IMG/VR virus record: IMGVR_UViG_3300017752_000010 | Location: 1 to 60,069 of that record | Strand: one strand, 5' to 3' | Length of the DNA: 60,069 bases | Source: a virus | Taxonomy: Duplodnaviria; Caudoviricetes | Shown: positions 7,763 to 40,728 of the stretch, in pieces | How positions within the stretch are numbered: the first letter of the stretch is position 1 | Layout: each line of letters begins with the position of its first letter | Notes under the pieces: generated by a model | What the model was told of the DNA's origin: nothing | Databases searched by the model: none | What the model saw: only the letters and a program-made list of their open reading frames with translations | Program-made: the position numbers and the translations under genes

Positions 7763-9904
7763 TTACTGTAGTAAGGAACCTGTAATTAGAACAGTGCCAT
7801 TTACATCTTCAATATTTAGAGTTTGCGAGTTAGTAAATGTAGCACCACCGACTGTTAATTCCAAAGATTGCGGAGAAAGTACTGATGTTGAAGATACTAG
7901 TCTCCATTCAGCATATCTGTACGCACCATCTGAATCAAGAGTATTATTTCCAACTTTTGCTGAGTGTTGAACAATATTTAAATTTGATCTTTCAGCAGAA
8001 CTCATACTTAAAGCTTTTGCTTGAGCAGTTGGATCATCAATAAGTGTAGCATCTAGATAGTAAAGCTCTGCAGCTTGCCTACCAGCAAATACTCTTCCTT
8101 TTTCTTGTTGTTTATTAGAAATTTCGATTACAATACCATGAAAATCTGCATCCGAATCAGAATCATGTGGTCTTGGAAGACCAATGTATCTATGTCTATT
8201 ATCGCCTTCAGCTAATGTTAGACCAGATCCATCTGAGTCACCAGTCGATTGAAGGTAAATTTGCATTCCAAAAAGGTCTGAATCGTGTTCAGAATCATAA
8301 CTAACTTTTACAGTATTAAATCCTGCATTACCTAAATCTCCGCCTACATGTGTTTCAGTACCAATAGTTACACCACCATTACCAATTAATCCTTCACTAT
8401 CAGAAATAACAGTTTGTAGCCAACCAAATTCAGTTTTGTTATGAAGAAGATTATAAATCTTCTCAGCAATGGTAGCGTTAGTATCACCAGCTACTAGATT
8501 TAACCTTGAGTCGGTGTCGTCTGAATCTCTATTTTTACCTGGTCCGTAAGGAACATTTAAAGTAAGATTTCCAGCAGGAATTGCAGATGGATCAGCAACT
8601 CCACCACGTCCATACATATTCACTGTAATGATATGTGTTTCTGAATCAACAGCATCAAATCTTGGATTTTTGTTAAATCTATCATCAACCCAAAGAGAAC
8701 CATTATCTACATCAAAACTAGGTGGTGTATTACCAACAACAGCAACGGCGTTCAAAGCAATAATTTCTTCTTCACCAGTAAAATCAGCTGGTCTTAATTT
8801 AAATTTATTAACAAAAGATTGATTGAATTGTTCTTGCGAAACTCCACCAATTAAACCAGTCATATTTTTTAGAACTACTGATTTTCTACCAAACAATAAA
8901 CTATTGCTTATTGAATCAATACCATTTGTTGTTGTATTTAAAGTTTCTCCGATGGATGCAACTCTTGGCGTTGTCTGATCTTCACCAACTGCAACAAATG
9001 TTATTTCAATTCTTGATGCTACACTTCCTTGATCTGAGTCTCTTGTAAAGAAGAAAGTATCGCTATCATTTGGAATAAATTTATACAAAGGTGTAATTGC
9101 TTGATCTACATAGCTTGTAAATGCGAAAGAAGCCTCGACTTCTAGAAGTTTATCACCACCATAAATATACACAATAGATTTATCTACAGAGTCAAGTTCA
9201 GCTTTTACTGTAGAGTCAAGAGATGAAAGCGCAGAATTTGTATTGACAGCATCTCTAATAGCTTTTGCAATTCCTTCTTTTTCAAAATCAGAATCAGCGG
9301 AAATACTAAATTGAATATCGACTACACCACCACCGAATGCTCCACCACCTGCTGCATTCACAGGAGAAATATCTGCATCTACTGTACCATCACTATCATG
9401 TAGAACTCGTTTAGATCTATTAGAGATTGCTAAAGAGGCATACGCATCTGAGTCAAGATTGCGGTGACGGGCTGCAATAGGTGAACTGCTTGGATAGGTA
9501 AAAGCAGCATTAGTAAGCGGTCTTTCGCCTGCATCAGAATCAAGTAAATAACTTTGACGAATTCTAAGTGAGATATTGTTACCAGCTTCGTCTGAATCTA
9601 AAAGTCTGCGAGCAATAACTCTAATCTGTGCACCATTTTGAAACTGCTGACCTGAGATTGAAGAACCTACTAGTCTATTTGCAGGAACATCTCCTGTTTT
9701 AGTAACAATCAATACATCAGAAGTACCATCCGAATCTCTTGTAACAGAAGGTCGTTTAGTATACAACTTTCTGTTAGACAAGTTAATCGCAATTTCGCCT
9801 TCTTCGATCTGATCAGTTTGAGGCTGACCTTCAGCATTTAAACCACTTGATTGAGATCTTCTATGTTGGTATACCGGTCTACCGTTACTAAAATTAATTG
9901 CCAT
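7763..9904 (-). CDS. putative tail fibre / baseplate appendage protein, DS(D/E)-rich
   Basis: N-terminal EGEIAINL..RKLY fibre-like motif; about 17 DS[D/E] motifs by hand count. Confidence 0.65.
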   Translation of the reverse strand: MAINFSNGRPVYQHRRSQSSGLNAEGQPQTDQIEEGEIAINLSNRKLYTKRPSVTRDSDGTSDVLIVTKTGDVPANRLVGSSISGQQFQNGAQIRVIARRLLDSDEAGNNISLRIRQSYLLDSDAGERPLTNAAFTYPSSSPIAARHRNLDSDAYASLAISNRSKRVLHDSDGTVDADISPVNAAGGGAFGGGVVDIQFSISADSDFEKEGIAKAIRDAVNTNSALSSLDSTVKAELDSVDKSIVYIYGGDKLLEVEASFAFTSYVDQAITPLYKFIPNDSDTFFFTRDSDQGSVASRIEITFVAVGEDQTTPRVASIGETLNTTTNGIDSISNSLLFGRKSVVLKNMTGLIGGVSQEQFNQSFVNKFKLRPADFTGEEEIIALNAVAVVGNTPPSFDVDNGSLWVDDRFNKNPRFDAVDSETHIITVNMYGRGGVADPSAIPAGNLTLNVPYGPGKNRDSDDTDSRLNLVAGDTNATIAEKIYNLLHNKTEFGWLQTVISDSEGLIGNGGVTIGTETHVGGDLGNAGFNTVKVSYDSEHDSDLFGMQIYLQSTGDSDGSGLTLAEGDNRHRYIGLPRPHDSDSDADFHGIVIEISNKQQEKGRVFAGRQAAELYYLDATLIDDPTAQAKALSMSSAERSNLNIVQHSAKVGNNTLDSDGAYRYAEWRLVSSTSVLSPQSLELTVGGATFTNSQTLNIEDVNGTVLITGSLLQ

Positions 9905-9908
9905 TGTT

Positions 9909-11273
9909 TTATCCTAAGTATTGAATGACTGCTGAGCCAATAAATGGTTTTTCAGAGAAAATCAGAATATTGCCACTATCATCTACTATATTTGTTACTG
10001 TAATTTCTTTATACATATCATCTACATCTGCAAAACCAGTGTAACCATCACCGCTATAACCAGCTGTATTCGATCCGGCTGCAGCACCTTGGCTGCCCCA
10101 AACTGTTTTAAATCTAACTGCTTTTGCAGTTTCTGAATCAGATTCGTTATCAATTGCATTGTACAATTGAGTTCTAATTACATCAAGGAATTCTGTAGTT
10201 ACTGCAGCTGTATTATCTGTTTGATAAGATCTTTTGTAAATTTTAAAATTCATTAATTTGGTTACTGATTCAAAATCTCTTTGGCTACCAGATGTACCTT
10301 TTGTAATAGGTAATACATAATACCCATTAGCAACTTCAGTAGAACCATCAACTGTAAGTGCTGAAGAAAGCTGATGCCACTGTTCTGAATCCCATGAGTC
10401 TTGATAAGTTGTTGTTACAGTCGAAGACGATAATCTTACATCAGATGTGTTAAACACCCAACCAATATCGTGACCGCAGTAAACAAATTCGTATATGGTA
10501 CTGTTTGTTCTTAGTTTTACTGGAGAAGAAGCATATCCTCCTGATACAATAGTTCCACCAAAGTTAATGTTATAATCTAAGAAGCCTTCAGAGTCTACAA
10601 CTTTTTTAGCAGAGCAATTTTGGAAAGAACCATTATAGTCTCTTATTTTTGTATGATTAGAATTAGGATATGTTAGACCATTTCCTGATGTGGCTTGAGA
10701 CCATTCAACTCTTTGATCGCTATCTGCAAATTTATAAGGCGATGTCCAAACATTTATTTCTTTACCATTTGATATCGATTCGCGAGATTCACGAATCCTA
10801 ATAACATCACCAATTTCTGCAAGTGGGAGAACAAGATTAACTCTTCTTACGCTCTCAACACCACTTAGATCAACATCAATTTGTTCACCTCTAGAAAGAA
10901 AATACATTTCAGAATCTAAATAGAGATCTGGAATTCCATCACCATCAGAATCAGCAAAGATCTTAAAACCAGTTTCAGAATCAAAGAATCTAGTGCCAGC
11001 ACCCTGATTATCTGAATCTATACCAGTTGTTCTAAATCCAACTCTTTGAAACTTTCCAGTTCCATGAAGTTCACCTACTCTATATTCGAATTCACCGAAG
11101 TTTCTACGATATCCGTAATAAGGTTGTGTGTTATCTGTACCAACTGGATTATCACCAAAGTTTTGATATACATCAGCAATAAGGTCATTTATCTTTGCAC
11201 CACCTTTACGAGCTGAATCACCAGTGCCAGAGTCTGGCGAAAGGCCGAGGTTAATTAAATCACGAGTTCCCAT
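9909..11273 (-). CDS. baseplate wedge / fibre connector, gp9/gp10-like
   Basis: INLGLSPDSGTGDSARKGGAKIN motif characteristic of T4 gp9/gp10 N-termini. Confidence 0.75.
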   Translation of the reverse strand: MGTRDLINLGLSPDSGTGDSARKGGAKINDLIADVYQNFGDNPVGTDNTQPYYGYRRNFGEFEYRVGELHGTGKFQRVGFRTTGIDSDNQGAGTRFFDSETGFKIFADSDGDGIPDLYLDSEMYFLSRGEQIDVDLSGVESVRRVNLVLPLAEIGDVIRIRESRESISNGKEINVWTSPYKFADSDQRVEWSQATSGNGLTYPNSNHTKIRDYNGSFQNCSAKKVVDSEGFLDYNINFGGTIVSGGYASSPVKLRTNSTIYEFVYCGHDIGWVFNTSDVRLSSSTVTTTYQDSWDSEQWHQLSSALTVDGSTEVANGYYVLPITKGTSGSQRDFESVTKLMNFKIYKRSYQTDNTAAVTTEFLDVIRTQLYNAIDNESDSETAKAVRFKTVWGSQGAAAGSNTAGYSGDGYTGFADVDDMYKEITVTNIVDDSGNILIFSEKPFIGSAVIQYLG

Positions 11274-11290
11274 AGTTTATTTATTCCTTA

Positions 11291-12145
11291 CTATAAATTA
11301 ATATCTCTAATAATCTTAACAATATTTCCATCAGAATCGCTAAGGTTAATAACTCTAGGACTATACTGACTATCTGAATCAAGGATAGCTGATGCATCTT
11401 CTGTAAAAGCAAAACCAACTTCACTTCCTATAAGATCACTATCACCTCTTCGCAAAGCATATAAGTTTTGTCTATCAGAATCTGTAGATCCTGGTGTGGC
11501 AATTGCTGCTCTTGAATCGAAAATTACTGTAGTGTTTGCAACTGGACCAGAAATAAAGACTTTACTATCAAATTCAAGTTGCCATTCAATTGTTCTTCTA
11601 CCTGCAATCTCTCCAACCCAGTCATCTGTCCAAGTAGCTGCTGTAAGAGTAATCGGCATATCAAAATCATTTGTAGGTACCGGTGTATCTGAATCAGCAT
11701 CAGCTGGAAAATGTCTAACTTTTACGGTATACGCTGGCTGAAAGAAAGGTAAAATCTGTTCTATAATCTGCCATCCATCATTTAAGTTTTTTGTTTCAAT
11801 GTATAAAGAGAATGAAAGATTATATGGAACAGGAGTCTTGATGTTTTGTCTTCTGCCTTTAGAATCTGGTGTGCGAATAAAATCTTGCTTACTAGTAAGT
11901 TTTCTATTTACATCATAGTTCATTGCAACTAGTTCATAAGACATTCTTGGAAGAAGTTTTTCAAACATCTCTTCTTCAGGTTTAAATTGTTTTTGAGCTT
12001 CAAGCCATTTTGCTCTTGGTCCATACGCAATAGGAACAGGAACTAATTTCCCATCTCTTCTTTTCAAAACAATATTATTAAAGAGACTACCAAAGACTGC
12101 AGTTGCGTTCTTAATAGTTTCGTGATAAAAGTGACGACCAATCAT
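11291..12145 (-). CDS. gp15: tail sheath stabiliser / tail completion protein gp15
   Basis: HFYHETI..FGSLFNNI, VPIAYGP, LPRMS, PVPYNL, QIIEQILPFFQP. Confidence 0.9.
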   Translation of the reverse strand: MIGRHFYHETIKNATAVFGSLFNNIVLKRRDGKLVPVPIAYGPRAKWLEAQKQFKPEEEMFEKLLPRMSYELVAMNYDVNRKLTSKQDFIRTPDSKGRRQNIKTPVPYNLSFSLYIETKNLNDGWQIIEQILPFFQPAYTVKVRHFPADADSDTPVPTNDFDMPITLTAATWTDDWVGEIAGRRTIEWQLEFDSKVFISGPVANTTVIFDSRAAIATPGSTDSDRQNLYALRRGDSDLIGSEVGFAFTEDASAILDSDSQYSPRVINLSDSDGNIVKIIRDINL

Positions 12146-13194
12146 TAAATATCATCCAAATTTCTAATTCCAGGCACTTTGTGTGCTCTTGCTGTATAGT
12201 CATCAGTTAGATTTTTAGGTCTTTCGACAACATTACCTTCATAATCAGTTACTTCTTGTTCTTCAGCTTGTTGTTCAATTACTGTGTTATCAGCCCAAGA
12301 ATCAAGTATCGCATCACTATCTGTAATATCTATTGCTTTTGTTTCAGAATCAGTAAATGAAATACCTGCTTTGGCTTTTGAAACAATTTCATCAGTTGAT
12401 GTAAGTTCATTTCCAACATTATCGTAAGAAACTGCAGTTGGGTTAAACTCAAGATCTTCACCAGAAAGTTCGAACAGTTTACAGTGTAATTTATACTGAT
12501 AGTTATCGCCTAACTGATAAAATGCCCCATCATGGAAAGTAGTAACACGTAAAATCTCAAACACTTTAGGTACATACTGTTTTTTATTTTGTGCTGATCT
12601 ACCAAATGGTATTACAATTAAATCACCTTCAAGTGGTCTTGAACGAGCATATTTAGAAAGCAAAACTTCGTAACTATCAGAATCAGCAGATCTTTGTTCC
12701 AATGTAACTCTGTAATCAGAATCTATGTTTTCAAAATTATTGATTGCAACGTTCATAATAACTTCTTCACGGAATTCAATACCGTACTGAGTCATTACAT
12801 CGCCTTCACCTTCAAATCCAGCAGCGGCAGCAAGTAACATATCACATTGAAAACCTTGATCAAAAACAGATTCAGGTCTTTCGTTCCAAATATCATCAGT
12901 ATAATCAGATGCTCTTGGCATATACCTTACAGTAATACCATTAACATTAATAGATTCTCTAATGAGGTTTTGAACTAATCTTTGTTCATTAGTTGAAAAT
13001 CTGGCTGAATTACCAAATTGATTAATGTAACCATCAATATATGTATTTTTAATTCCAGCAGAAAGAGCATAGTCTCTATTTACTTTTTGAATAGATCTAT
13101 TTAAGTTTTCGCCAAATTCAGAGTCATTGTCGCTATCGCCATCAAAGCCGCTAGATGCAATAGTAAATCCTGAATAATTGTTTGTTATAGTCAT
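12145..13194 (-). CDS. gp14: neck protein gp14
   Basis: EQRLVQNLIRESI, GFEGEGD.MT.YG, RPLEGDLI, FYQLG..Y.YKL.C.LFE. Confidence 0.85.
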   Translation of the reverse strand: MTITNNYSGFTIASSGFDGDSDNDSEFGENLNRSIQKVNRDYALSAGIKNTYIDGYINQFGNSARFSTNEQRLVQNLIRESINVNGITVRYMPRASDYTDDIWNERPESVFDQGFQCDMLLAAAAGFEGEGDVMTQYGIEFREEVIMNVAINNFENIDSDYRVTLEQRSADSDSYEVLLSKYARSRPLEGDLIVIPFGRSAQNKKQYVPKVFEILRVTTFHDGAFYQLGDNYQYKLHCKLFELSGEDLEFNPTAVSYDNVGNELTSTDEIVSKAKAGISFTDSETKAIDITDSDAILDSWADNTVIEQQAEEQEVTDYEGNVVERPKNLTDDYTARAHKVPGIRNLDDI

Positions 13195-14036
13195 TAACCA
13201 TAATACCCGGCGTCGTACCCTACTCTTACAAGTCTTGCCATAATTTCTGCAAATGCATCTTCTATATTATCAGCATCAATTCTAAAAGAAGAAGCTGTAT
13301 CACCTTCAATGGCGTTAAAATCACTATATAGTAATCTTTGATTTGCAGCAGACAATTTAGATGATTGAGTTCCAGCTTGTAATCTTGCTAATGCTCCATC
13401 AAAGTCAAGTCTAAGATTTTGTGGAGAAAATTCATTTTGAACTTTCAATAAACCATCAGAGCCAACTCTTAAATAGGCAGGAGCAGAAATACCATATTCA
13501 CCGTTTCTAACATTAATAGTATTAATATCAATACGACCAGATGGATTTGATCTAGAGAATTTATCTCTAAAGCTTTGTCTACTTTGGCTTGGAATATTTG
13601 TTGATAGAATTACAACATCACCTTCACTTAGATTTTTAAATGCATCAGAATCAAGACCGCCAGATATACCTCTTTTTGTAAAAGTTGTATCGCTATCCCA
13701 TTGAATTTGATCAGAAGATTTAACACCAAGAATTCTAAAATCACTATCGCCTGTAGGTCTTTCAAGTCTCTGCAAACGTCTGTTTTTATCGGAGTCTGTG
13801 GCATAAACTGCTTCCATAAAATTACCAACTTTAATAAAAGCGGTACGAAGCGGATCTCCAGTGTTTGAGTTTGGAGAATTACCGATATTAATCCTTACGT
13901 TATTTTTTACTCTACGGTCTGCAGCATTAAACGAAACTTCAGTTCCACCGTCATTTAATACAGGAGCTGTACCAACTTCGTCTACACCATCACCATAGTT
14001 TGGTTTTAAAATATCACTTAGATTACGATTTGTCAT
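13194..14036 (-). CDS. baseplate fibre-connector-like protein (gp9-like motif)
   Basis: INIGNSPNSNTGDPLRTAFIKV motif. Confidence 0.65.
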   Translation of the reverse strand: MTNRNLSDILKPNYGDGVDEVGTAPVLNDGGTEVSFNAADRRVKNNVRINIGNSPNSNTGDPLRTAFIKVGNFMEAVYATDSDKNRRLQRLERPTGDSDFRILGVKSSDQIQWDSDTTFTKRGISGGLDSDAFKNLSEGDVVILSTNIPSQSRQSFRDKFSRSNPSGRIDINTINVRNGEYGISAPAYLRVGSDGLLKVQNEFSPQNLRLDFDGALARLQAGTQSSKLSAANQRLLYSDFNAIEGDTASSFRIDADNIEDAFAEIMARLVRVGYDAGYYG

Positions 14037-14226
14037 TTGTAATTCCTAATAGGAGACTTTCAATTCTTTGAAGAGCATCTTGAACTTCTTCTTGTTTTTC
14101 TTCTAGTCTCAAAAGCCTTTCTTCTTTTTGTTTTTCTTGCAGCTTTTTATTTTTTGCTGCTGTATAATCTGCTCTATTAACATTTAATATAGCACCGCTT
14201 TTTTCATTACGAATATAGTTTCTCAT
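14023..14226 (-). CDS. small coiled-coil protein
   Basis: IRNEKSGAILN followed by a coiled-coil; translationally coupled to the large structural gene. Confidence 0.65.
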   Translation of the reverse strand: MRNYIRNEKSGAILNVNRADYTAAKNKKLQEKQKEERLLRLEEKQEEVQDALQRIESLLLGITNDKS

Positions 14227-17200
14227 TATATTACCGCAATAATTCTCAGATCTTTAATTGCAGGTATAAAAGATTCGTTTTGCACTTTAAAGATGATCTT
14301 AATTTTAAAGGCTTCAAACTCTTCAGCAACTTCTTCGATAAGAGAGTACTCTACAAAATCAGAAGAAGATGGGAAACTATCAAAGTTTGTTTCATTTACG
14401 GCTTGATTTCGCGGAAATGTCTGCCAATCAAAATCTTCGAATGGCGTATTATCACCAACTGGTCTGGCTTTATATTGAACAATTAGTTCACTACCAGGTT
14501 CCATATCAGCATCAAAGAGTACTTTTAGCTGATTTGCTGGTACTTCAAGTTCAACTTCATTAGTGATATATTGAGCAAACTCTTTATTATTCTGCACAGC
14601 AGCAATGTAAGAAATAAACTCATTGTGAACGTTTTCACTATCAGCAACTGTAACTTGAGTTGTTGTAAAGCCAGTTTCTAATTCTGAATCAGTAATAAAG
14701 TCTCCAACTACATATTTTTCAGTAAACATGGTTGACATAGCATCTACTCTAACAATTGGTGAAAGATACTCATTAGTATTAGTAAAGGTCAGTTTGTTTT
14801 CAAAATCAGATGTATTGGTTTTGTTCAAAGTGTTTTGAACTATCTGAGGGAAGTTAAAATCTACGAATTCATCAACATCAGCTTCAGCAAAATCTGTTTT
14901 AATATTTGGATTTTGATAATAGATAGAGTTCGTGTTATAACCATACTTGTTAGAAGCTGGTCTCACATCTACAATAGAACCACTTGTTGTTTTAATTTCT
15001 GAAGTAGCATTAGTTCCATCAAAAAGAACAGGTGAAATGTTAGTTTTCACTCTATCAAACTGAATATTAGAAGTAGCTACTGTATTAGTACCACCACCTT
15101 TACCAGCTTTAACACCTTTTCTCCAAGATACATAACTTTGTTCTGAATCAGCTTCACTCAAATCGATAAAGTATGAATCTTTAGTAGCATATTTCACATT
15201 GTGAGTTTTACCAGAAGCTGTACTTGTAAGATTTGATATTCCATCTACATTGTTAATCAAAGTAACTGGTATACCGTTTAAGTTTGACGCAGAATTAAAT
15301 CTAGCGTCTTCTGAATCATTAGATGATGGGAAAAGATTATTTCCTTGAGCACCTAGAATTCTTACTTGGTGTGTATCATTAGGACCATACATACCATGGT
15401 TTTCGTGATATACTTTTACAAAGTGAGAATTTTCAAATGTTTCTAGTGCAAGACCATCATAAGTTTGACCAATTGGATTTGCATAGAAGTTATTTGTATC
15501 TTTAAACGTAATACTAGCATCTTCAGTACCAAAGTTTGCTCTATATACTTTAAACTTCATATCTCTATTTTGATCTGCAGTCCATGTCGAATTGTTTTGC
15601 GACTTAAAGAAAGAACCATAATAACCACCAACGTTTGGTTGTTGATCAATTTTACCGCCAGTGATTACATCATTTTGACCTTGTACAGCTGTCCATGCAG
15701 TTGTTTTATCAGAAGGAGTAAGTAGAACAATACAATATTCTTTGTATGCTTCAATGTAGCATGGAGCATCAAATCTAAAGTTAGTTTCAACTGTTGGTGT
15801 AGTTAAGTTTTCATTTGATTTAGACACTGTAACTCGAGAATTAGCAATAATTTCTGGTCCAGGATAGCCATTAATCATGTTTCTAATTTGACACTGTACT
15901 TGATTTTGAAGATCTCTTGTATCCACAAATCCAAGCCATACATCAACTGAAGTAATGAATGAGCCAGTTCTTCTTGGAGCATCTATGTTTGGATCAAAGT
16001 TATTTGGATTAGAACCAGCATCTAAAGGAAGAGTGAATGCTTGTGCAATCGGATCTTCATACTTAGCAGTAGTGCTTTCTACTCTGGAAACATTAGTTGA
16101 ATTTCTAGCAATTGTAACATTGTTTCGAATAGTTTGTGCTCTAACTGATACCATTTCACCTACATCGAAATATCCTCTTGATGTGAATGAGCCGGCTGCA
16201 AAAGTTGTATTTGCTCCATCTAAATCAGTAATAATAAATCTTTTCACACCAGTCTTAAATGTATTAGCTGGAATAGTAAATCTTCCACGAAGTTCACCAA
16301 TATTATCTGAAGTCAAAGATCCAAGAGCTCCATATTCTCTTGTAGTTGCTGTTGGATCAAAAGGAGTCTGCTGTACAAATCTAGTAACATCAACACCATC
16401 AAATTCTACTTTCAAGGGAACATTTGGTCTCATTCCTTGCACATCAAATTTTACAGTAATTGAACGCATGAAAGCATCATCAATTGCTCTTACTTCTTTT
16501 GTTCTAAACTCTGTTTTGATAGTTCTTTCATCAGCAAAGCTAGCTCTTGTAGTGTTAATCTTTTTACCAGCTCTAATTTTTTGAGTGATTTTAACACGTT
16601 GACGACTACCTTGAGAATTTGTAAATTTAACAACTCCAAATTTTCTTCTAACAGCAGCTCTTGAAATATCTTCGCGGGACCTAAACATATAAGATGTTGA
16701 AGTTTTTGTAGTTCCAGCCCACTGATAAGATGTAGATTCTTTAGCAGAACCAGCAACTTGAGTTGAAGTAGAGCGCAAATTGTTAAACACTGATTCTGGA
16801 ACAGATTCAATACCACCACCAAAGGATGTTCTATCAACTACGTGACCACTAACTACTCTACGACTATCATCTTTCCAATAATCTTGAGGAGGATCTAAAT
16901 TTAAATCGCCTGCATAAATCCATGTGTTATACGGATTAATTCGAATAGTTTCAGAAGCAAACGTTTGAGATAAGACTTCTTCTTGATCATATGATTTAAC
17001 AATATAACCAGGAGTTTGATTCAAGTAATACTCATCAATATTTGTACCATTATCTACTTTTTGAACATTAAAGAATGAATCTACTGAAAGAGGATATAAA
17101 GTTTTCTGTTGCGAATCAATAGATGCTCTAAAGTTTGGATCTCCAAAGTCTGATCTTGCGTTCTCATCAGAAAAATCATCAACAATAAATCCGGATTTTG

Positions 17201-20417: not shown

Positions 20418-20448
20418 TGTTATCCATCTTTATATTTTTTATATTTAT

Positions 20449-27287: not shown

Positions 27288-27293
27288 TTTTAT

Positions 27294-27701: not shown

Positions 27702-27728
27702 AAGTTATTTATTATAGCGGTCGCAATA

Positions 27729-28265
27729 TTAGGGATGATAGAAAATATGCCTATCAATTACTACTTTCTTTTTAAATTGAAAGGACCATGTGGGTGTTAC
27801 ATAATCTGCATGATAAAAAAGAGCACCATCAGTCATATCAATTATTGAATCTGATTTTGCAACAATTTGTTTTGATAGCTCGTAAATTTCCCAAAAAACT
27901 TTTTTAGATTTGATTACGTCAGGTTGACCATCGCAGTACCAACTAAATTGGCAACGATTTTTGTATGCATATAATTTTCCTGTCAACTTACTTTCGTAAT
28001 GAGGTCCTTCATATACTACTTCACAAATAGTATCAGGAAAATCTTTTGACTTTAACCTATTCATTGTAACGTTACCAACCGCTACTTTGCCTGCAGTTGA
28101 TTCATTTCTTGATTCCATATAAATGTTTTGAGCCATACAAAACGTTTGCGGATCAAGATTTAAAGTAATTTCTAACTTTTCTTCTGCAGTTTCAGTTTTG
28201 TGTGGAACTTCATTCATCCCTGAGAGAGAAATGACAGTTGCGAGCATGCTATCTAATAATTTCAT
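27729..28265 (-). CDS. cell wall hydrolase (SleB / Hydrolase_2 family)
   Basis: CMAQNIY.E.R, V.NV..NR, FP.TIC.VV, CQFSW.CDG, GALFYHA.YV.P.W, I..HIFY. Confidence 0.88.
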   Translation of the reverse strand: MKLLDSMLATVISLSGMNEVPHKTETAEEKLEITLNLDPQTFCMAQNIYMESRNESTAGKVAVGNVTMNRLKSKDFPDTICEVVYEGPHYESKLTGKLYAYKNRCQFSWYCDGQPDVIKSKKVFWEIYELSKQIVAKSDSIIDMTDGALFYHADYVTPTWSFQFKKKVVIDRHIFYHP

Positions 28266-28333
28266 ATCTTATTACTTATACCAGATTATAACGATTTTTA
28301 GAAATAAATAATCAGTATACACAAAGGTAATTG

Positions 28334-32455: not shown

Positions 32456-32899
32456 ATGAAATCGAAGACAAGAAGACTTGCCGAACTAGGCAGTAGAATT
32501 CAGCAAGACAGATATGGTAATATTACTAGTATCAAATCTAAAGGATTAACTACAGAAACTGCTGATTTTACGAGTAGTTTAAATGGAGTCGATGGAACAT
32601 TTTCTGGAAATGTAGATGTACAAGGTTCTTTTGGTAGTGTCCAAGATTTAACTGGCACGGGTTCAGTAGTAGCTCAGAGCTTTGTAACAACTGTAATCCA
32701 CAATGGTACAGGAACAATCACTGTTCCAACTGATGGATTTGCAAAAGGATCACAAATTAGTATCGTTACTAATGGAACTATTAACAATATCGATTGGGGT
32801 GATAGCTCTAAAGGTATTTCATTAGGTGGAGCCACAAAGATGGCTTCTGGAACTTTTGATGGTGTTAAATGGTTCTATTCAGAAGCTGCGACGAACTAA
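32456..32899 (+). CDS. putative virion / fibre protein
   Basis: AGGAG SD and AATAAATA upstream; G/T/S-rich beta-strand composition. Confidence 0.65.
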   Translation: MKSKTRRLAELGSRIQQDRYGNITSIKSKGLTTETADFTSSLNGVDGTFSGNVDVQGSFGSVQDLTGTGSVVAQSFVTTVIHNGTGTITVPTDGFAKGSQISIVTNGTINNIDWGDSSKGISLGGATKMASGTFDGVKWFYSEAATN

Positions 32900-32903
32900 T
32901 GAT

Positions 32904-33299
32904 ATGCATGTACATAACACACTCTACATCAAACTCGATTCAGACTACGTAAATCACAAACTCACATTTGCTGATAGCGAAAGTGTTACATCAATTGTTG
33001 TTGAAGTTCCTGAAGGAATTAATATTACAAGCACTTTTGGTAATTATGCTCTTGATATTCCTAAACTTCCTAATATAGCTTTTATCAAGATTATAGTTGA
33101 TGGAACTATTATTGGTGAAGGCGGAAATAATTGGGGTGGTGGAATCATAAACAGAAATCCTACGTGTTATGCTCTTTGCACTTCAAACACAGGACAAGGC
33201 ATTGTAAGAGGTGGCGGTGGCACTAGTGGATATATTAGATATGCATTAGCTGGAAAATTCAACGCTTTGAAAAACCCTCCACGCCTTTTTAACTTCTAA
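32904..33299 (+). CDS. putative fibre-tip / glycine-rich adhesin-like protein
   Basis: Start re-assigned to ATG 32904; GTIIGEGG and GIVRGGGG motifs reminiscent of gp38-type adhesins. Confidence 0.55.
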   Translation: MHVHNTLYIKLDSDYVNHKLTFADSESVTSIVVEVPEGINITSTFGNYALDIPKLPNIAFIKIIVDGTIIGEGGNNWGGGIINRNPTCYALCTSNTGQGIVRGGGGTSGYIRYALAGKFNALKNPPRLFNF

Positions 33300-34042
33300 T
33301 GGCATTACGCACCCCACCTCAAAGATCTATTGGCAAGACTTACGCTCGTAAAGCTTCAAAAATGATTAGAACATTTTTCATTACAAATGATAGTGATTCT
33401 ATTGTAATGAAATTTGATCATGAGACCCATCCTTTTTCTACAAAGTTACATAAACTACAAGTTGATTCAGGTGGAGCATTTACATCTTCTGTACCTACCA
33501 CATTTAATGGTACTGTTAATTTTAACTTTGATCAGAATAATATTTTTGATGTTGAATATCCAACGGTAAAAATTGGTGCTGATAATGGATCATCTACAAA
33601 ATTTAATTTTGGATCATCTGTATCAGAAGATTCAGATACCACTATGATTATAGATGGCACTACTGATATTCATGGTGCTGTCTATTTTAGACCTCTTTCA
33701 GAAGTTTTTATTTCAGCTGACTCTTTAAATACGCCTTTTAATAATGAAGTTGCCTTTAACGCTGCAATTTCTATCGACTCTGATTTAAGTGGTGGAAGTG
33801 TATTTGATAGTGAAATTACAGGTACTACGCTGAATGTAATTAATTTAAGAGGCGGAGATGCTGAAGGAGATAATGAGCATTTCGGAGATTCTACTTCCGG
33901 GCATGGTCTCTTTTTAGGAAGTCAAGAAATTGTTTTTAACGCTGCAAAGAATCTTACAATTTGCGGTGTAACTGGAACATATGATTCAGATATTTTGTTA
34001 CCAAATGGTTTGGCAACTCAGTTCTTCGATATAAGGAATTAA
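33299..34042 (+). CDS. putative fibre protein
   Basis: Beta-helix-like composition, 5 DS[D/E], coupled to the previous ORF. Confidence 0.6.
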   Translation: MALRTPPQRSIGKTYARKASKMIRTFFITNDSDSIVMKFDHETHPFSTKLHKLQVDSGGAFTSSVPTTFNGTVNFNFDQNNIFDVEYPTVKIGADNGSSTKFNFGSSVSEDSDTTMIIDGTTDIHGAVYFRPLSEVFISADSLNTPFNNEVAFNAAISIDSDLSGGSVFDSEITGTTLNVINLRGGDAEGDNEHFGDSTSGHGLFLGSQEIVFNAAKNLTICGVTGTYDSDILLPNGLATQFFDIRN

Positions 34043-34049
34043 ATAGAGT

Positions 34050-34634
34050 ATGGCACGTCAAAAATCAAAAGCCCGTCTTCACGCAGATTTGGTTCATCAG
34101 ATCAAAACTAATGAAGATGGTGAAATTGTAGAACTAAATCTAAACGAAGCTATTAATTTCAAAAGTGTTGAAATTGATGGTGATCATCCTGATGATTTTT
34201 TTATTGTAAATTCAGCCGCAACATTCAATAATGATATTACTTTTTCTAGTTCAACAGGAACTTTAACGATTGATGCTGGAGTAGTTAACTTTGGTGTTGA
34301 CTCAGATGTTGCTGAAACTTTAACATTTGGTTATGATTCTGATGATAAGTGGGAAGTATTTGGTACTCTTGATATCAAAGGTAGAGCTTACTTGCGCAAT
34401 GGTACTGTTTTTGATGGTCCAGTCACAGTAAATAGTACAACATCGTTTGGTAGAAGAATTAGTGGTACTGCTGCAACATTTTCTGGAGCTTTAACTGCTG
34501 GAACTGTAACAGCTACGACAGCAAATGTTACAAATCTTAACTTTGGTTCGAGTACCTATACAGGCACTAATAATTTTGTAATTCAAAACTTATCTGGCAC
34601 TGAAGTCTTCAGTGCTCATGGATTCACTACTTAA
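34050..34634 (+). CDS. putative fibre protein
   Basis: KSKARLHADL N-terminus, beta-helix-like T/G-rich body, ATTAAATA 4 nt before the ATG. Confidence 0.6.
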   Translation: MARQKSKARLHADLVHQIKTNEDGEIVELNLNEAINFKSVEIDGDHPDDFFIVNSAATFNNDITFSSSTGTLTIDAGVVNFGVDSDVAETLTFGYDSDDKWEVFGTLDIKGRAYLRNGTVFDGPVTVNSTTSFGRRISGTAATFSGALTAGTVTATTANVTNLNFGSSTYTGTNNFVIQNLSGTEVFSAHGFTT

Positions 34635-34939: not shown

Positions 34940-34954
34940 AATATAAATCCTTTT

Positions 34955-35416: not shown

Positions 35417-35425
35417 AATAGATCC

Positions 35426-35887: not shown

Positions 35888-35902
35888 TATATACTCCTAC
35901 TT

Positions 35903-35910
35903 TATTTATA
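35903..35910 (-). promoter_or_regulatory. T4-type late promoter TATAAATA for the lysis genes
   Basis: Exact TATAAATA, followed by an AGGAG SD and the ATG at 35887. Confidence 0.7.
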
Positions 35911-36958
35911 GATCTTGCCAAGTACCTTCTTTTGTGCCGATTATTTTGTAATATGGTTTTGATTTATGAATAGCAATGACATCTTTTAACCACTCAGTAA
36001 CTGATTCAGATTTAGGATGCTCTTTTGCAAACTTCCAATACTTTTGTAATGGTGAATTTAAGGTATTTTCATCATAAAAAGAATCTGGCTGTTTTGATCT
36101 TTGTTCTGCTGTTTTGATAATGGTGTAAACATTGCACCACTCATTATTAAGATTTTGTGCTGTGCGTTTTAAATTTTGAATTTCGAGATACGCGTTAAGT
36201 TGCTCTTCCTTAAAACGAGATTTAGATTTTTTAAATTCTTGAGAGTTTAAAATGTATTTTCTAATAGACATTTTTAATGCTCTTGTTGTTTTTACTAAAT
36301 CTTTCCATGCATCAGTCTGTTCTATTTCTCTAATACTATCACCAGTATTATCAAATTTCCATTGATTAGTTCTTTGTGCACCAGCGGTGTGATCACTAGT
36401 CCTTGCCTGTAGAGCTTCTGTATAAGTTGTTATTGAAGGTTTTTCAGACTGTTCCGGTTCTGGCGCTTTTACTTCTGTTTCATCAGGTTCATCTTGAGTA
36501 GGAGCAACAGATGGCGTAGTGGCGGGTTTTGCTAATTTTTCAATGTTGCCATCAGGATCAAGTTCTAAATTTTCTATTTCACAAACATCAGGCTTGTTCT
36601 TAAAAAAGTCTGGTAAATCAGGAAAGTCTATATCAAAACTAAAATCAGGTAGACTTGGTACCGCTGAATCTACTATACTATCAATCTTGTCGCCAAGCGC
36701 ACCAAATTTCTCTTTCAAAGCTAATTTAGCTGCTTCAAGTTTTGGACCTTGACCCATTGATTGAAGTTTTCTTAATTCATCTTGTAAGCTAATTTTTGGA
36801 ATTTTTGAAGCTACTGCATTTTCGAAATCAGCAAGCGCTTGATCTGCACTTGCTGCAAGAGCATCTAGTCCAGCTGCTCCGCTGTCTGCTGCTGCTTTGA
36901 TTGAATCTCCTAAACTAGTAAGAGCTTCAATACCTTTATTTTCTCCACACTTTGCCAT
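35906..36958 (-). CDS. hypothetical protein
   Basis: 350-aa ORF with an Ala-rich helical N-terminus and P/E-rich linker; downstream of gp5. Confidence 0.65.
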   Translation of the reverse strand: MAKCGENKGIEALTSLGDSIKAAADSGAAGLDALAASADQALADFENAVASKIPKISLQDELRKLQSMGQGPKLEAAKLALKEKFGALGDKIDSIVDSAVPSLPDFSFDIDFPDLPDFFKNKPDVCEIENLELDPDGNIEKLAKPATTPSVAPTQDEPDETEVKAPEPEQSEKPSITTYTEALQARTSDHTAGAQRTNQWKFDNTGDSIREIEQTDAWKDLVKTTRALKMSIRKYILNSQEFKKSKSRFKEEQLNAYLEIQNLKRTAQNLNNEWCNVYTIIKTAEQRSKQPDSFYDENTLNSPLQKYWKFAKEHPKSESVTEWLKDVIAIHKSKPYYKIIGTKEGTWQDL

Positions 36959-37494
36959 TATGCTACTTTCACTATGCTAATATTTCCATTGTCAATGCTA
37001 AAAGCCGAAGTATCTACATTTGCTGCTTTTAAACGCAATGTATCACCAACACTAATATCAATTAAAACATTTGAAATAGTATAATGATATTCTTCGCCGC
37101 TCACTGTACCAGTTGATGTATACCCATATAAGCTTTCATCCTCATAAATAGAATCATTCAAATGTAATGGAAAAGCAATTCCATCGTTCACTGAAATGCC
37201 AGCGCTTTGAGAACCTGAAATAGTGTAACTAACTGAATAAACACCCTTTTGAGTAAATGTAAAAGTATCTGAGTCATACGTTATTCCACGATTGAAACTA
37301 GATTGATTTGCGAAAGCAATGGAATCGCCAGTTACGGCAGGGCTAATACTAGTCGGATTCCAGCACATTGCAAGGGGTTGTTGAGGCGTAGAAATGATTC
37401 CACCACTAGTAATGTTTAAAATTTCAGAATCGCCATTAGTATCCGTAAAGATTACTTCATCACCGGCATTATTAATTTTAGCATCGATAGTCAT
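36958..37494 (-). CDS. C1q/TNF-like jelly-roll virion protein
   Basis: GITYD..TFTF..KG.Y.V.Y, L.VGDTL.L pattern. Confidence 0.55.
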   Translation of the reverse strand: MTIDAKINNAGDEVIFTDTNGDSEILNITSGGIISTPQQPLAMCWNPTSISPAVTGDSIAFANQSSFNRGITYDSDTFTFTQKGVYSVSYTISGSQSAGISVNDGIAFPLHLNDSIYEDESLYGYTSTGTVSGEEYHYTISNVLIDISVGDTLRLKAANVDTSAFSIDNGNISIVKVA

Positions 37495-37503
37495 CTATAT
37501 CTC

Positions 37504-38847
37504 CTAGTTTGGCGGCGTTGTTGTACCAGCACCCAAGCCGGCAGAATCTGTGTGTGTATGCGATGACAATGCTATACCATTACCAGTTACTTCACCAGTT
37601 GAAGTTGTGGTACCAGAAACTGTAGCATTTCCAGTAATATTTGTATCTCCTACAATATCTGTAGGATTTTGAATAGTTGTCAGATCAGCTTTTATAGTTT
37701 GATTACCACTTACAGAAATTTTCATATCTTTCAAAGAAGATACATTCATCTTCTTGCCGCTAAATATAGTTGTTTCACCAGTTGCACTTATTAAAAGATC
37801 ATCTTTGATGATAAGGTTTTCATTAGCTCCGATAGTTGTGGTTCTATCACCCTCTACAGATCTAATTTCAGCAACTCCTACCCGCAAATTCTTATTGTTG
37901 GTAATATTTGTAGAAACGTCTTGACCTACTTCTAACAAATCATTAAATTTAATTTTGGTTTGACGATTGCCCAATATCTTTTCGTGTTTATCACCCTCTA
38001 CTTCGAGAAAGTAATTACCTTTTACTAATTGCTTATAATCGCCTTCAACAGTCATGTTTACTGAACCTTTGACATATATATTTTCACTGCCAAAAACAAC
38101 GCTATATTTATCACCAACAATTGTAATAGTTTCATCACCATTATCTTGAATTTCCCAATTAGAACCACTAGCATGAAATTGAGAGATTCTATTATTACCG
38201 GGTGTATCATCTACCTCAAGGACATGACCACTTTCAGTTTCAGTTACTTTGTTGAATGGATATACTGGTTCTTTACCTTGCTGAACTTCAGGCATATTCC
38301 AAGTTGTTCTTTCATAGAAAGAATCTGCTTCAGGTGGGCCTACAGTATCTACTTTTGGTGCAATTGCAATTGGTATATTTAGCTGTCTTAGTTCATCCTT
38401 AAGTTGATATGAAATATGCTTTTTGTATTCTTCACGTCTTGCTGAATGCGGTGTATCTACTTGATCATCACCATATCGTACAGGATGAATATTCTCAGGA
38501 TCATTAAAACCTTTTTCAAAGTTTGGTATGTATGGTCTAGATGGAAGTGTACCCATAACAAAAGGCTTTTGCATGCTTTCTGCATCAAGAAAATATCCAA
38601 ACACCCAAGAGCCTTGAACAATACCAGTAGCTGATTGACCTACACCACCTAAACTTGCAGATGTTATTGGCATCATGACCATAGACCATGGCAAACTTTC
38701 TGTAGGAATTAAGGTTTTGTCATCAGAATGCAAACCATATATGCGCACTTTAACACGACCCATTTCTTCAGGATCATTTCTATCTTCTACTACGCCTACA
38801 AACCAATAAAATTGGCCATGACCTACATCGCCTTTATCGCCTATCAT
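37504..38847 (-). CDS. gp5: baseplate hub / tail spike gp5 (no lysozyme domain)
   Basis: WFVGVVEDRNDP..GRV.VR..G.H, LPW, GSWVFG.FLD, YP.NKV..TESGH..E.DDTPG, beta-helix repeats, C-terminal HTH. Confidence 0.9.
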   Translation of the reverse strand: MIGDKGDVGHGQFYWFVGVVEDRNDPEEMGRVKVRIYGLHSDDKTLIPTESLPWSMVMMPITSASLGGVGQSATGIVQGSWVFGYFLDAESMQKPFVMGTLPSRPYIPNFEKGFNDPENIHPVRYGDDQVDTPHSARREEYKKHISYQLKDELRQLNIPIAIAPKVDTVGPPEADSFYERTTWNMPEVQQGKEPVYPFNKVTETESGHVLEVDDTPGNNRISQFHASGSNWEIQDNGDETITIVGDKYSVVFGSENIYVKGSVNMTVEGDYKQLVKGNYFLEVEGDKHEKILGNRQTKIKFNDLLEVGQDVSTNITNNKNLRVGVAEIRSVEGDRTTTIGANENLIIKDDLLISATGETTIFSGKKMNVSSLKDMKISVSGNQTIKADLTTIQNPTDIVGDTNITGNATVSGTTTSTGEVTGNGIALSSHTHTDSAGLGAGTTTPPN

Positions 38848-40034
38848 TATAAGCCATCCTTTACTAGATCAAGAGAAGTCATAAATTGCTTATCTTTAAA
38901 AGTATCTCTTTTACCAACTACAAAATATTTCCCACTCCATACTTTATCAAGATTTCCTTGTTTGTTTTCAGGAGCTGGTTCAGGAATTTTAATACTCAGC
39001 ACTTGACCAATATCGATATCTTGATTTCCGTGAATATTAATAGAAATAGCTTGGTTATAACCATTTACTGAACTTCTTTTGATTTGTGATATATCAATAT
39101 CAGCATTATCAGTATTTACGCGAATAATTCCAGGCTTATACTCGTTGTATGGATAAAAGTAACCTTCATTTAGATACGAATCTTTTTCGTGATTCTTATA
39201 ATAATCATAGTCTATAATTTCAGTATTTTTATTTTCAATATCAATATTGTAGTTTCTGCCAAAAAGATACCCATCTCTCAAAGCTCTAGTAATGTCAAAT
39301 GTTTCTTTGTAATCTATTGATAAAATAGTTTTCATATCCTTAGCGGTATCCGGCATATCATTTGCTGAATTTTGCTTTCTTTGTATTGATTGATTGAGTG
39401 TAAAAGTATCTGCTGGTTTGTCTTTATATAGATCAATAGATCTTTCAATTGGCATAAAATTATAAAGACCTTTACTATCTTGATAAAATCTAAATCTTAC
39501 ATCTTTATGTTCATCACGAGCTTTTGATGCCAGCCATTTTAAAGCTTTGATAGGACTCCAATTAGGTATAACAATATTTTTGTTACCTAAGGAACCATCA
39601 AAAATGCCAAATTTCTCTGTAGTAGTTTCTTTAAATATTTTCAAAGCAATTTCTCCATAAGTTCCAGAGTATGACTTTGATATTTTTGCAAACTGAGATA
39701 TAAAAGCAAGTTCAGAAATTGCTTCTAAGATATACGCTCTTTGAGTTGTTAAATTTTGAATTGCAGAAACTTTTGTTACTACGAGTTTATAATTTCTTTT
39801 TGTGCCATTGATTGTTATTTGCGTATCAATAGGTAATCCACCTTGTACAGGCATTTTACCCAAAAGATTCACTGCATCGATGATTACGAAACGCATCACA
39901 TTAGTAGAATCCATAACACTAGCAAATACGTTTATTTCGTTTACTAAACCTGTAATATCTGTTGAATTGTCATCAGTGCCAAGTTTTACGTATTCGAGCT
40001 TAAAACTCCCTGGTAGAGTTTGTTTAGCCATCAA
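38847..40034 (-). CDS. baseplate hub / tail protein (gp27-like)
   Basis: Between gp53 and gp5; IPNWSP..A..WL, GQV..I, SGKY.V motifs. Confidence 0.7.
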   Translation of the reverse strand: MMAKQTLPGSFKLEYVKLGTDDNSTDITGLVNEINVFASVMDSTNVMRFVIIDAVNLLGKMPVQGGLPIDTQITINGTKRNYKLVVTKVSAIQNLTTQRAYILEAISELAFISQFAKISKSYSGTYGEIALKIFKETTTEKFGIFDGSLGNKNIVIPNWSPIKALKWLASKARDEHKDVRFRFYQDSKGLYNFMPIERSIDLYKDKPADTFTLNQSIQRKQNSANDMPDTAKDMKTILSIDYKETFDITRALRDGYLFGRNYNIDIENKNTEIIDYDYYKNHEKDSYLNEGYFYPYNEYKPGIIRVNTDNADIDISQIKRSSVNGYNQAISINIHGNQDIDIGQVLSIKIPEPAPENKQGNLDKVWSGKYFVVGKRDTFKDKQFMTSLDLVKDGL

Positions 40035-40728
40035 TTAAACCTTCTAATTCATTTTTTACTTTATTCAAAATAGTTCGCTTTGGAAGAACGATCTTTCTTT
40101 TAAGATCGTTTTGTTCAATTTCCCATTGTTCAATAGAAACAGGAGTAAGAGTTTCTGTACCTTTAGAACCGCCCCATGCATCTTCAGTAGAAATATTCGT
40201 ATCAATCGAATAATCAAAAATAGTATTTGAATCGATAGCACCATAAGTAGAAAGATTTGCTTTAGCTCTTAAAAGCTTTGGCTGTTTTCTCACACCAGTT
40301 CCAGTGACAAAACCTCTATATGTAAGGTTTCCAAAGTTATCACTATCTGATAATCCTTTAAATTGTACAAATTCAGTTACTTGAATTCTTGTTAACGTAA
40401 CATTAGTTCCTGTATCGCTATCATACTGAACTTTATATTTTTGATAGATGTATTCTTCAAATTGGCTACTTGTTTTTGGCCATTGTTCATAAATATTTAC
40501 AATTTCATTTGCAAGCATAATGCCCCAATGCATATTGACGTCATCATAAGTAAGTTTAGCCAAAGATTCAGGCGTATCACCATCTCTTACTTCATAAAAC
40601 TCAAAGTTGCTAGCATTTTCTAAAACTTTTTCGCGAAATTTAGGACGTATAGAAAGGTCAGTCATCACGCGACGAACATTATCTGGAAATTGATATTGGA
40701 TTCTTCTAAAATCTTCAAAATATGCCAT
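40024..40728 (-). CDS. gp53: baseplate wedge subunit gp53
   Basis: YF..F..I.Y, YEVRDGDTPESLA..Y....HW.I.LAN, WP, E...N..KR.I. Confidence 0.85.
   Translation of the reverse strand: MAYFEDFRRIQYQFPDNVRRVMTDLSIRPKFREKVLENASNFEFYEVRDGDTPESLAKLTYDDVNMHWGIMLANEIVNIYEQWPKTSSQFEEYIYQKYKVQYDSDTGTNVTLTRIQVTEFVQFKGLSDSDNFGNLTYRGFVTGTGVRKQPKLLRAKANLSTYGAIDSNTIFDYSIDTNISTEDAWGGSKGTETLTPVSIEQWEIEQNDLKRKIVLPKRTILNKVKNELEGLIDG

Follow-up and report, generated by a model that had tools for sequence, protein, structure and literature searches.

A dispersed Asp-Ser-(Asp/Glu) tripeptide in outer virion proteins of uncultured marine T4-like phages, a candidate sequon for protein modification

In this study, we analyzed a 60,069-base fragment of a T4-like myovirus (IMG/VR record IMGVR_UViG_3300017752_000010, ~34% G+C), referred to below as the window, and found that the tripeptide Asp-Ser-(Asp/Glu), hereafter DS[DE] or the tag, is scattered through its outer virion proteins far above expectation. 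As a sequence feature the tag is real, strong and unusual, and it comes with a coherent but unproven mechanism: we tentatively read it, at somewhat less than an even chance, as a Ser O-glycosylation sequon that would be written by the phage's own glycosyltransferases (GTs) of the GT-A fold. Virus-encoded glycosylation and an enzyme specific for DSD are known already. A literature search, with most subscription journals outside its reach, found no description of a DS[DE] motif in phage proteins.

Enrichment and strictness of the motif

All 56 open reading frames (ORFs) of the window were translated and DS[DE] was counted with overlapping matches included, using the expectation from composition and 500 residue shuffles per protein as controls. 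A total of 140 motifs were found in 15 tagged ORFs (8176 aa), comprising 103 DSD (5.7 expected) and 37 DSE (3.1 expected). The remaining 41 ORFs (10565 aa) contain 3 motifs against 7.2 expected, a weak and non-significant depletion. Eleven of the tagged proteins had been named in an earlier reading of the letters alone (the sequence-only reading), whose hand counts were all reproduced exactly; the zero counts it gave for gp6, gp25, gp5, gp27, gp48, gp26, the tube-like protein, the ClpX-like protein, gp32 and the other proteins on its list also hold. For these 11 proteins, composition predicts 0.2-1.9 motifs each. None of the 500 shuffles matched the observed count in 10 of them, and the shuffle fraction for the eleventh (13194-14036) was 0.002. 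Four more ORFs carry two motifs each (32826-33299, 34050-34634, 36958-37494 and 40024-40728; shuffle fractions 0-0.016). Moreover, an unbiased scan of tripeptides in the 15 tagged proteins ranked DSD first (z = 41), with DSE (z = 19) next among the tripeptides seen more than once; MCW outranks DSE by z, but as a single occurrence with near-zero expectation. The excess thus persists both over composition-shuffled controls and in the unbiased scan.

The motif is strict. Close variants all fall below expectation (observed/expected: DTD 2/4.7, DTE 1/2.5, ESD 1/3.1, ESE 0/1.7, DSN 2/4.9 and NSD 1/4.9). With other residues in the middle, the counts are DGD 4/4.3, DAD 6/4.0 and DND 1/4.3, with DVD also near expectation, and with other residues in third place they are DSA 3/4.4, DSI 6/4.5, DSL 1/4.3, DSV 4/4.7, DSM 1/0.7 and DST 4/5.2. 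Pro never follows the motif (0/140 versus 4.6 expected, P = 0.01), and Asp or Glu precedes it in 7 cases versus 18.5 expected; otherwise the flanks show no consensus. When 864 distinct sites from 96 proteins of the close relatives described below as clade A were pooled, sites that are partly orthologous and hence non-independent, Pro after the motif stood at 0.1 times background and the other flank positions were near background.

The motifs are arranged as dispersed singles, with eight DSDS[DE] doublets and nothing longer seen, and they are encoded on both strands. Their Ser codons are 32% AGY and 68% TCN, versus 25% and 75% outside the motif in the same proteins; this usage resembles the background, and selection therefore acts on the peptide. 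In addition, at 19 of the 83 motif sites conserved between orthologues, one orthologue encodes the Ser by TCN and another by AGY, a change that needs at least two substitutions with Ser retained. Both observations agree with the proposal of the sequence-only reading that the peptide, and not a DNA repeat, is under selection.

Distribution among and within virion proteins

The tag is confined to outer baseplate, neck and fiber proteins (Table 1), as expected from the claim that peripheral virion proteins carry it and the inner tail core is free of it. From the T4 tail, we take the tagged proteins to be wedge periphery, neck and fibers, and the untagged ones to be tube, hub and inner wedge. The counts cover the genes in the window only; those for capsid, portal and sheath fall outside the 60 kb, and the spread over the whole virion surface that the sequence-only reading proposed goes beyond what these counts support. 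The inner wedge protein gp6 carries no motif in the window, in loci L002-L004 or in G006.

The positions of motifs on a predicted structure could be inspected for gp8, of which a model (m27a7578e7e46, from 23 sequences) reached a mean predicted local distance difference test score (pLDDT) of 83. Six of the nine motifs lie in coil (residues 47, 102, 255, 280, 282 and 412), two occupy the first residue of a helix (56 and 218) and one the first residue of a strand (383), so that in this model every motif is in coil or at the start of a secondary-structure element. In the VrlC-like giant protein, all 11 motifs fall within residues 148-563 and 1701-1926, and the central ~1100 residues have none, a pattern that suggests a difference in exposure at the level of domains. 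Similarly, gp7 has no motif between residues 655 and 886.

Conservation and lineage restriction

The tag recurs in close relatives of the window. Three IMG/VR contigs with a gp6 57-62% identical to that of the window have no motif in gp6 and gp25, 32-36 motifs in gp7 and 9-10 in gp8. The orthologue of the 7763-9904 protein in L005/L006 is 78% identical and carries 20 motifs. For the 28331 protein, just seven homologues were found among 1.84 billion representatives, all seven with 10-46 motifs. Among 65 gp8 homologues, the 26 with at least 31% identity all have 4-10 motifs, and the 39 with at most 29% identity all have 0 or 1. The cultured phage HTVC008M shows no excess (one motif in its gp7-like protein and none in gp8 and VrlC), nor do S-RSM4 and P-HM2. 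The tag can also be missing from a single protein of a tagged relative: in G007, the orthologue of the 13194-14036 protein has no motif.

Individual sites are conserved between orthologues at 40-60% identity while the flanks vary. Of the 21 motif columns of the 28331 protein, 19 recur in orthologues at 40% overall identity, with differing flanks and Asp/Glu interchange in third position. Motif columns are likewise shared in gp7 (16-19 of 26, with L002-L004), gp8 (6-7 of 9) and the 30296 protein (16 of 20, with L004). Across the pairwise orthologue comparisons, 83/111 motif sites (75%) were kept, versus 733/4562 (16%) of other tripeptides. In the alignment to HTVC008M, the corresponding positions are mostly other residues and not gaps and no motif column is shared; at 24-27% identity this alignment is only indicative. 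Judged from sequence, the tag is a clade-specific feature of proteins of the same fold and is held by site-wise purifying selection.

A gp8 tree (156 sequences, FastTree, midpoint-rooted) places the tagged phages in two groups. Clade A is one long-branched group of 19 leaves; among 160 fetched loci, those of this clade contain DS[DE] at 7-19 times expectation. Clade B is a second monophyletic group of ~60 leaves, whose loci mostly reach 2-9 times the expected DS[DE], nearly all as DSD. It includes a 144-kb record (G003) that is probably complete, because its ends split the capsid gene. In the structural region of this record (1-40300; L182-L189), the observed/expected counts are DSD 47/6.6, DSA 45/6.6, DSS 22/8.1 and DSE 5/5.0, and in the rest of the genome DSD is 6/9.3 and DSA 4/7.4. 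From the joint excess of DSD and DSA, the clade-B tag is therefore DS[DA], confined to structural proteins. Such a variant is as expected if the specificity of a reader enzyme had drifted. Some tag sites of a 1752-aa fiber-like ORF in the same record lie within internally repeated modules.

Enzyme genes next to the structural module

A cluster of enzyme genes lies on the plus strand directly past the last structural genes (Table 1). For the family scans, 209-6767 was compared with both Pfam and PHROGs, 6781-45988 and part of 50563-60011 with PHROGs, and 46668-56554 with Pfam. Three ORFs of the cluster (3343, 4779 and 5528) are GT paralogues sharing an N-terminal G-x-x-Y motif and an invariant DxD, with D103 and D105 present in 11/11 aligned members. 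ORF 3343 is 27% identical to ORF 4779 (E 1e-16), and ORF 5528 has an orthologue in G007 (49% identical). Foldseek comparison of the ORF 4779 model with the PDB retrieved LgtC (E 1.8e-8), followed by the UGGT catalytic domain, XXYLT1, LARGE1, glycogenin and GlyE (E up to 5e-6), with template modeling (TM) scores (TMq) of 0.45-0.59 overall and of 0.53-0.59 for UGGT, LARGE1 and glycogenin. On this predicted structure, the one among the three GTs from which the fold is taken, ORF 4779 is placed in the GT-A retaining GT8/GT24 fold group. The placement is made because of the fold search and not of sequence profiles: neither PF01501 nor another Pfam family matches ORF 4779 at E<=0.01 or ORFs 3343 and 5528 at E<=1, and a profile of the GT family compared with PDB sequences met GT8 chains only at non-significant E values of 0.1 and 0.95.

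Similar clusters accompany the tag elsewhere. The tagged record G007, with a gp8 32% identical to that of the window, has three GTs of the window family, a methyltransferase, an AspH-like ORF (PF05118, E 2.4e-9) and three ORFs resembling ORF 2806, all located in the stretch that runs from its structural genes to the end of the contig. Of the clade-B loci examined, 13 have one or two GTs and a methyltransferase after their last structural gene.

An acidic 213-aa ORF of the window (6126-6767; 12.7% Glu) is conserved in many marine T4-like lineages, where it closes the structural module, and a GT and/or methyltransferase gene nearly always comes next after ORFs of this type. In G007, the structural genes are separated from the GT/methyltransferase cluster by seven consecutive radical S-adenosylmethionine (SAM) ORFs (L178 9434-18956; PF04055, E 1e-16 to 5e-8).

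Proposed mechanism and alternative explanations

We propose that D-S-[D/E], when not followed by Pro, would be a sequon, the least that an enzyme needs to recognize in order to modify phage structural proteins at the central Ser, within the cytoplasm of the infected cell. The most likely modification would be O-glycosylation, started and extended by phage GT-A enzymes (GT8-like, with a retaining-type fold), and the product of the adjacent methyltransferase gene would perhaps cap the glycan. Sites would be gained by point substitution in loops of outer-tail proteins (the gp7/gp8/gp9-10 wedge periphery, the VrlC-like giant, the gp13/14/15 neck and the fiber-like proteins) and then held by purifying selection, and proteins buried in the hub, tube and inner wedge would remain motif-free. 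The outcome would be a tail periphery coated with small glycans. We favor a sequon because the central Ser is absolute, the residue before it is Asp only and the one after it Asp or Glu, Pro is excluded behind the motif and no other context is seen; in addition, purifying selection acts site by site, the tag is restricted to a probably exposed subset of virion proteins, it is absent from sister homologues of the same fold, and its third position is lineage-specific.

The assignment of the GTs as writers is tentative. The window GT family or Pfam GT8 occurs in all three of the tagged records whose size allowed a search, namely the window, G007 and G003, and in none of four complete untagged genomes (HTVC008M, S-RSM4, P-HM2 and G002). 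A GT-centered scan of 80 loci gave a DS[DE] ratio of at least 2 in 26 of the 33 best tblastn matches versus 7 of the 47 remaining, a difference that follows phage lineage and does not count as independent evidence. That the Ser is modified at all, that it would carry a sugar and that these GTs would be the writers are nevertheless steps that we infer, and a number of results weigh against them. First, the co-occurrence is weak statistics, because the tagged phages form two clades of the gp8 tree and so represent one or two events. Second, G003 has no GT of the window subfamily at E<=0.001, only a remote member found by iteration and Pfam GT8 matches elsewhere in the genome; its ORFs between fiber genes match no Pfam family, and a 251-aa ORF fails to match the GT profile (hhalign probability 1.3%). 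Third, GTs also lie beside untagged modules. In L142, a GT (19965-20660) adjoins a structural module with untagged gp7, gp8 and VrlC-like proteins (3 motifs versus 5.0 expected over the locus), and loci L224-L264 have three or four GT paralogues and no DS[DE] excess, even where ORFs of the size of gp6, gp7, gp8 and VrlC are present (L241). In the GT family tree, moreover, each window paralogue is nearer to the GTs of these untagged loci than to those of clade B. The GT family is thus not diagnostic, because it is also present in untagged phages; its use as a specific marker of the tag was dropped, as its more distant members occur in untagged phages and the pattern follows phage lineage. Fourth, SdgB, the staphylococcal enzyme that acts on DSD, is described as having a GT-B fold (PMC8561734), to which the GT-A, GT8-like enzymes of the window are unrelated; no GT-B or GT4 match was found among the window ORFs scanned. 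Fifth, the pelagimyophage survey of Zaragoza-Solas et al. (2020) assigns such GT8 genes to modification of the host O-chain (PMC7029224). Finally, other candidate writers, such as kinases, may lie outside the 60 kb.

In the untagged, GT-rich loci, an excess of [YF][TS]G was considered as a possible second dispersed tag and rejected, as it consists of period-4 tandem repeats. These are [YF]-[TS/AV]-G-x repeats in fiber-sized ORFs (L229 16774-20510 and L240 12580-17934), with counts of 71 [YF][TS]G over 792 aa and 99 over 1150 aa. The phages lack the DS[DE] tag, and next to the repeat ORFs they have clusters of three or four GTs belonging to the family discussed here, for which these Tyr/Thr/Ser-rich repeats may be substrates.

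We rank O-glycosylation first, followed by another covalent modification, metal binding and a recognition tag. The same sequon could be read by an enzyme of a different kind, for example an acidophilic kinase phosphorylating the Ser, an AspH-like 2-oxoglutarate oxygenase hydroxylating the flanking Asp at its beta carbon, the class I methyltransferase methylating carboxyl groups, or a radical SAM enzyme. All the sequon-like features apply equally to these chemistries, and genes fitting them stand in the same neighborhood: PF05118 AspH-like ORFs in the clusters of both the window and G007, the seven radical SAM ORFs of the latter, and the methyltransferase conserved beside the GTs. We nonetheless consider such a modification unlikely. 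Neither a kinase nor a radical SAM gene turned up in the scans of the 60-kb window, and the absolute requirement for Ser, not Thr, points to Ser and not Asp as the modified residue. The AspH-like genes were discarded as trackers of the tag: PF05118 is found in the untagged P-HM2 (two matches, best E 4.9e-20) and weakly in the untagged HTVC008M, and because of this occurrence in untagged phages, and because such genes are said in the pelagimyophage survey to be core to all pelagimyophages (PMC7029224), they are not tag-specific.

The sequence-only reading had proposed either a sequon or a metal-binding tag. The sequon passes every sequence-level test applied here, and metal binding fits less well. 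A carboxylate-hydroxyl-carboxylate triad could bind Ca2+ or Mg2+ from seawater, or simply provide surface charge, and so stabilize or hydrate the tail periphery with no covalent modification. Acidic side chains at i and i+2 are a classic metal-ligand geometry, the phages are marine, and the motifs lie in loops of the gp8 model. A ligand of this kind would not, however, explain why DxD in general is not enriched and Ser alone is favored in the middle, why the first position refuses Glu and the third accepts it, why Pro is excluded after the motif, or why clade B uses DSA, which lacks the second carboxylate. Besides, the coordination sphere of a metal ion takes more ligands than one tripeptide can offer, and the dispersed motifs have no partner motif in their flanks. 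We therefore regard this explanation as quite unlikely.

An improbable further explanation is that the tripeptide serves as a non-covalent recognition tag for a phage assembly chaperone or decoration protein, or for adhesion to the host surface. It would account for the limitation to a subset of virion proteins and for the conserved sites, and several tagged proteins are fiber-like and of unknown family. Nevertheless, no protein emerged as a candidate reader, the binding energy to be had from a tripeptide is very small, and ~140 sites in 15 proteins of unrelated folds are hard to fit to one specific partner.

An artefact of composition, of a DNA repeat or of a DNA signal such as GANTC, which Asp followed by Ser (GAY-TCN) creates and which the richness of the tagged proteins in Asp (7-11%) and Ser (7-13.5%) might favor, is ruled out as a practically negligible possibility by the shuffle and composition controls, the third of motif Ser codons that are AGY, the switches of codon class at conserved sites and the unrelated flanks.

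Relation to known systems and significance

The general O-glycosylation sequon of Bacteroidota, D-(S/T)-(A/I/L/V/M/T), like the tag, has three residues beginning with Asp-Ser and is scattered over many unrelated proteins, and the DSA of clade B formally fits it. As a parallel for the window, which the sequence-only reading had drawn, it fails: the third residue is Asp or Glu, A/I/L/V/M/T are not enriched there, and Thr is unused. Furthermore, the Bacteroidota system acts in the periplasm and phage tails assemble in the cytoplasm. Another likeness is found in the staphylococcal enzymes SdgB, of family GT4, and SdgA, which act on serine-aspartate repeat adhesins; there, too, the acceptor Ser is flanked by Asp, with DSD as the minimal site. 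These adhesins carry long tandem SD repeats in one disordered stalk, whereas the window has single tripeptides dispersed in folded proteins and accepts DSE as well. SdgB is reported to attach O-linked N-acetylglucosamine to DSD as a minimal free tripeptide (PMC8561734).

Among viruses, the chlorovirus PBCV-1 protein A064R is reported to unite a GT-A domain of the retaining type and an O-methyltransferase domain, and O-methyl groups are described on the glycans of the capsid protein Vp54 (PMC4691112). As in our proposal, glycosylation there is virus-encoded, cytoplasmic and directed to non-canonical sites, and A064R parallels the window pair of GT8-like and methyltransferase genes (PMC4691112). 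The Vp54 glycans differ in being N-linked, in a eukaryotic virus and on the capsid, with no common sequence pattern recognized at the sites. In mycobacteriophages, the glycosylation sites reportedly lie in Ser/Thr-rich C-terminal tails of capsid and tail-tube subunits, with no strict tripeptide. Extensive glycosylation of mycobacteriophage virion proteins has been reported (Freeman et al. 2023, as cited in PMC12582341).

The same genomic setting in marine T4-like phages has been described as the pelagimyophage "host recognition cluster", in which GT8 genes, radical SAM cassettes and AspH-like genes occur among fiber genes downstream of VrlC (Zaragoza-Solas et al. 2020, PMC7029224). The consulted portion of that survey differs from the present work in proposing host O-chain modification and says nothing of a tripeptide tag carried by virion proteins.

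Should the tag mark a modification, abundant ocean phages would decorate the tail exterior with a chemistry that is invisible in gene annotations, with consequences for host recognition, for the stability of the virions, for how readily they stick to marine particles and for how well they resist proteases. The GT, methyltransferase, oxygenase and radical SAM genes among marine T4-like fiber genes, now read as modifiers of the host surface, would then gain a function. In its widest form, namely that marine T4-like phages run their own sequon-directed O-glycosylation of more than 100 exposed loops of outer tail, neck and fiber proteins, with cytoplasmic GT8-like writers and a divergence between DS[DE] and DS[DA] lineages, the proposal is possible and rather doubtful. 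In that case, the GT8 enzymes encoded in the "host recognition cluster" would serve to coat the virion instead of modifying host lipopolysaccharide. An O-linked sequon of three residues that is this strict, paired with a writer that is small and soluble, would moreover be useful for glycosylating proteins at chosen sites. Mechanism aside, the motif is a simple sequence marker by which two uncultured phage clades can be told from their relatives, and it points to proteins that are probably exposed, as well as domains of giant proteins such as the VrlC-like one.

Gene content of the window

In scans with PHROG and Pfam, gp9/10-like, gp15, gp14, a VrlC/DUF4815-like giant protein, gp8, gp7 and gp6 were recognized, together with gp25, a lysozyme-like protein, gp5, gp27, gp53, gp48, gp26, a tube-like protein, gp2, a ClpX-like AAA+ protein, gp59, gp32 and a thymidylate-synthase-like ORF. 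The features bearing on the tag are listed in Table 1. The closest cultured phages are Pelagibacter phage HTVC008M, Methylophilales phages of the Melnitz group and cyanomyoviruses, with gp6 just ~33% identical in protein searches. A nucleotide search of a phage collection with 35906-38847 of the window gave no match. The relatives of the window stem from marine metagenomes, including Tara.

Table 1. Features of the window that bear on the DS[DE] tag (motif counts are given against the composition expectation where available)
Feature	Position	Strand	Evidence and remarks
Short-chain dehydrogenase/reductase	209-925	+	adh_short, E 4e-15
AspH/cupin-like ORF	927-1640	.	HxD...H pattern read by eye; no Pfam family even at E<=1
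AspH-like ORF	1631-2425	+	PF05118, E 6.3e-10
Unknown ORF	2383-2802	.	in enzyme-like cluster
Unknown ORF	2806-3315	.	HxD...H pattern read by eye; no Pfam family even at E<=1
GT-A (GT8-like) paralogue 1, candidate writer	3343-3996	+	phrog_1962 glycosyltransferase, E 3.8e-8
Class I SAM-methyltransferase-like ORF	4102-4782	+	Atlas lead only: feature score 0.97, structure TM 0.74-0.77
GT-A (GT8-like) paralogue 2, candidate writer	4779-5552	+	model m02b422430b48, pLDDT 74, predicted TM score (pTM) 0.79
GT-A paralogue 3, more distant	5528-6193	+	joins the family by jackhmmer, E 1.3e-23
Fiber-like virion protein, 713 aa, no known family	7763-9904	-	17 vs 0.85; no PHROG match
gp9/gp10-like baseplate wedge/tail-fiber connector	9909-11273	-	8 vs 0.53; phrog_967, E 3.6e-8, phrog_677
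gp15-like tail sheath stabilizer	11291-12145	-	5 vs 0.22; phrog_227, E 1.5e-57
gp14-like neck/head-closure protein	12145-13194	-	6 vs 0.44; phrog_460, E 5e-38
280-aa protein adjoining gp14, probably a neck protein	13194-14036	-	4 vs 0.35
VrlC/DUF4815-like giant structural protein	14226-20417	-	11 vs 1.57; phrog_358, E 8e-285
gp8 baseplate wedge protein	20449-21849	-	9 motifs; phrog_438, E 1.7e-38; homologues carry PF09215
gp7-like baseplate wedge protein	21853-25443	-	26 vs 1.87; phrog_26741, phrog_17744
Untagged contrast: gp6, gp25, lysozyme-like ORF	25446-28265	-	0 motifs
Fiber-like protein, 650 aa, no known family	28331-30283	+	21 vs 0.94; no PHROG match
Fiber-like protein, 711 aa, no known family	30296-32431	+	20 vs 0.99
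Three small ORFs, 157, 247 and 194 aa	32826-34634	+	2, 5 and 2 motifs; middle ORF at 33299-34042
178-aa ORF, borderline	36958-37494	-	2 motifs; shuffle fraction 0.016
Untagged hub/tube block: gp5, gp27, gp48, 476-aa ORF, gp26, tube-like protein, gp2	37504-45988	-	gp53 is the sole tagged member
gp53-like baseplate wedge subunit, borderline	40024-40728	-	2 motifs; shuffle fraction 0.01; phrog_232

Between the tagged 7763 protein and the end of the structural module lies a 323-aa ORF rich in Thr, Ser, Gly, Ala and Asn (6781-7752) that contains no DS[DE]. Conserved counterparts, 78% identical in L005/L006 and 30% identical in G007, also lack the tag. Another Ser-rich and acidic protein, a 633-aa ORF without a family match (50973-52874; Ser 10.3%, Glu 10.1%, Asp 7.9%), has no DS[DE] against 0.92 expected. 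The untagged ClpX-like AAA+ protein (46668-47798) matches AAA_2 (E 1e-25) and ClpB_D2-small (E 3e-10) and has a 56% identical counterpart in G006.

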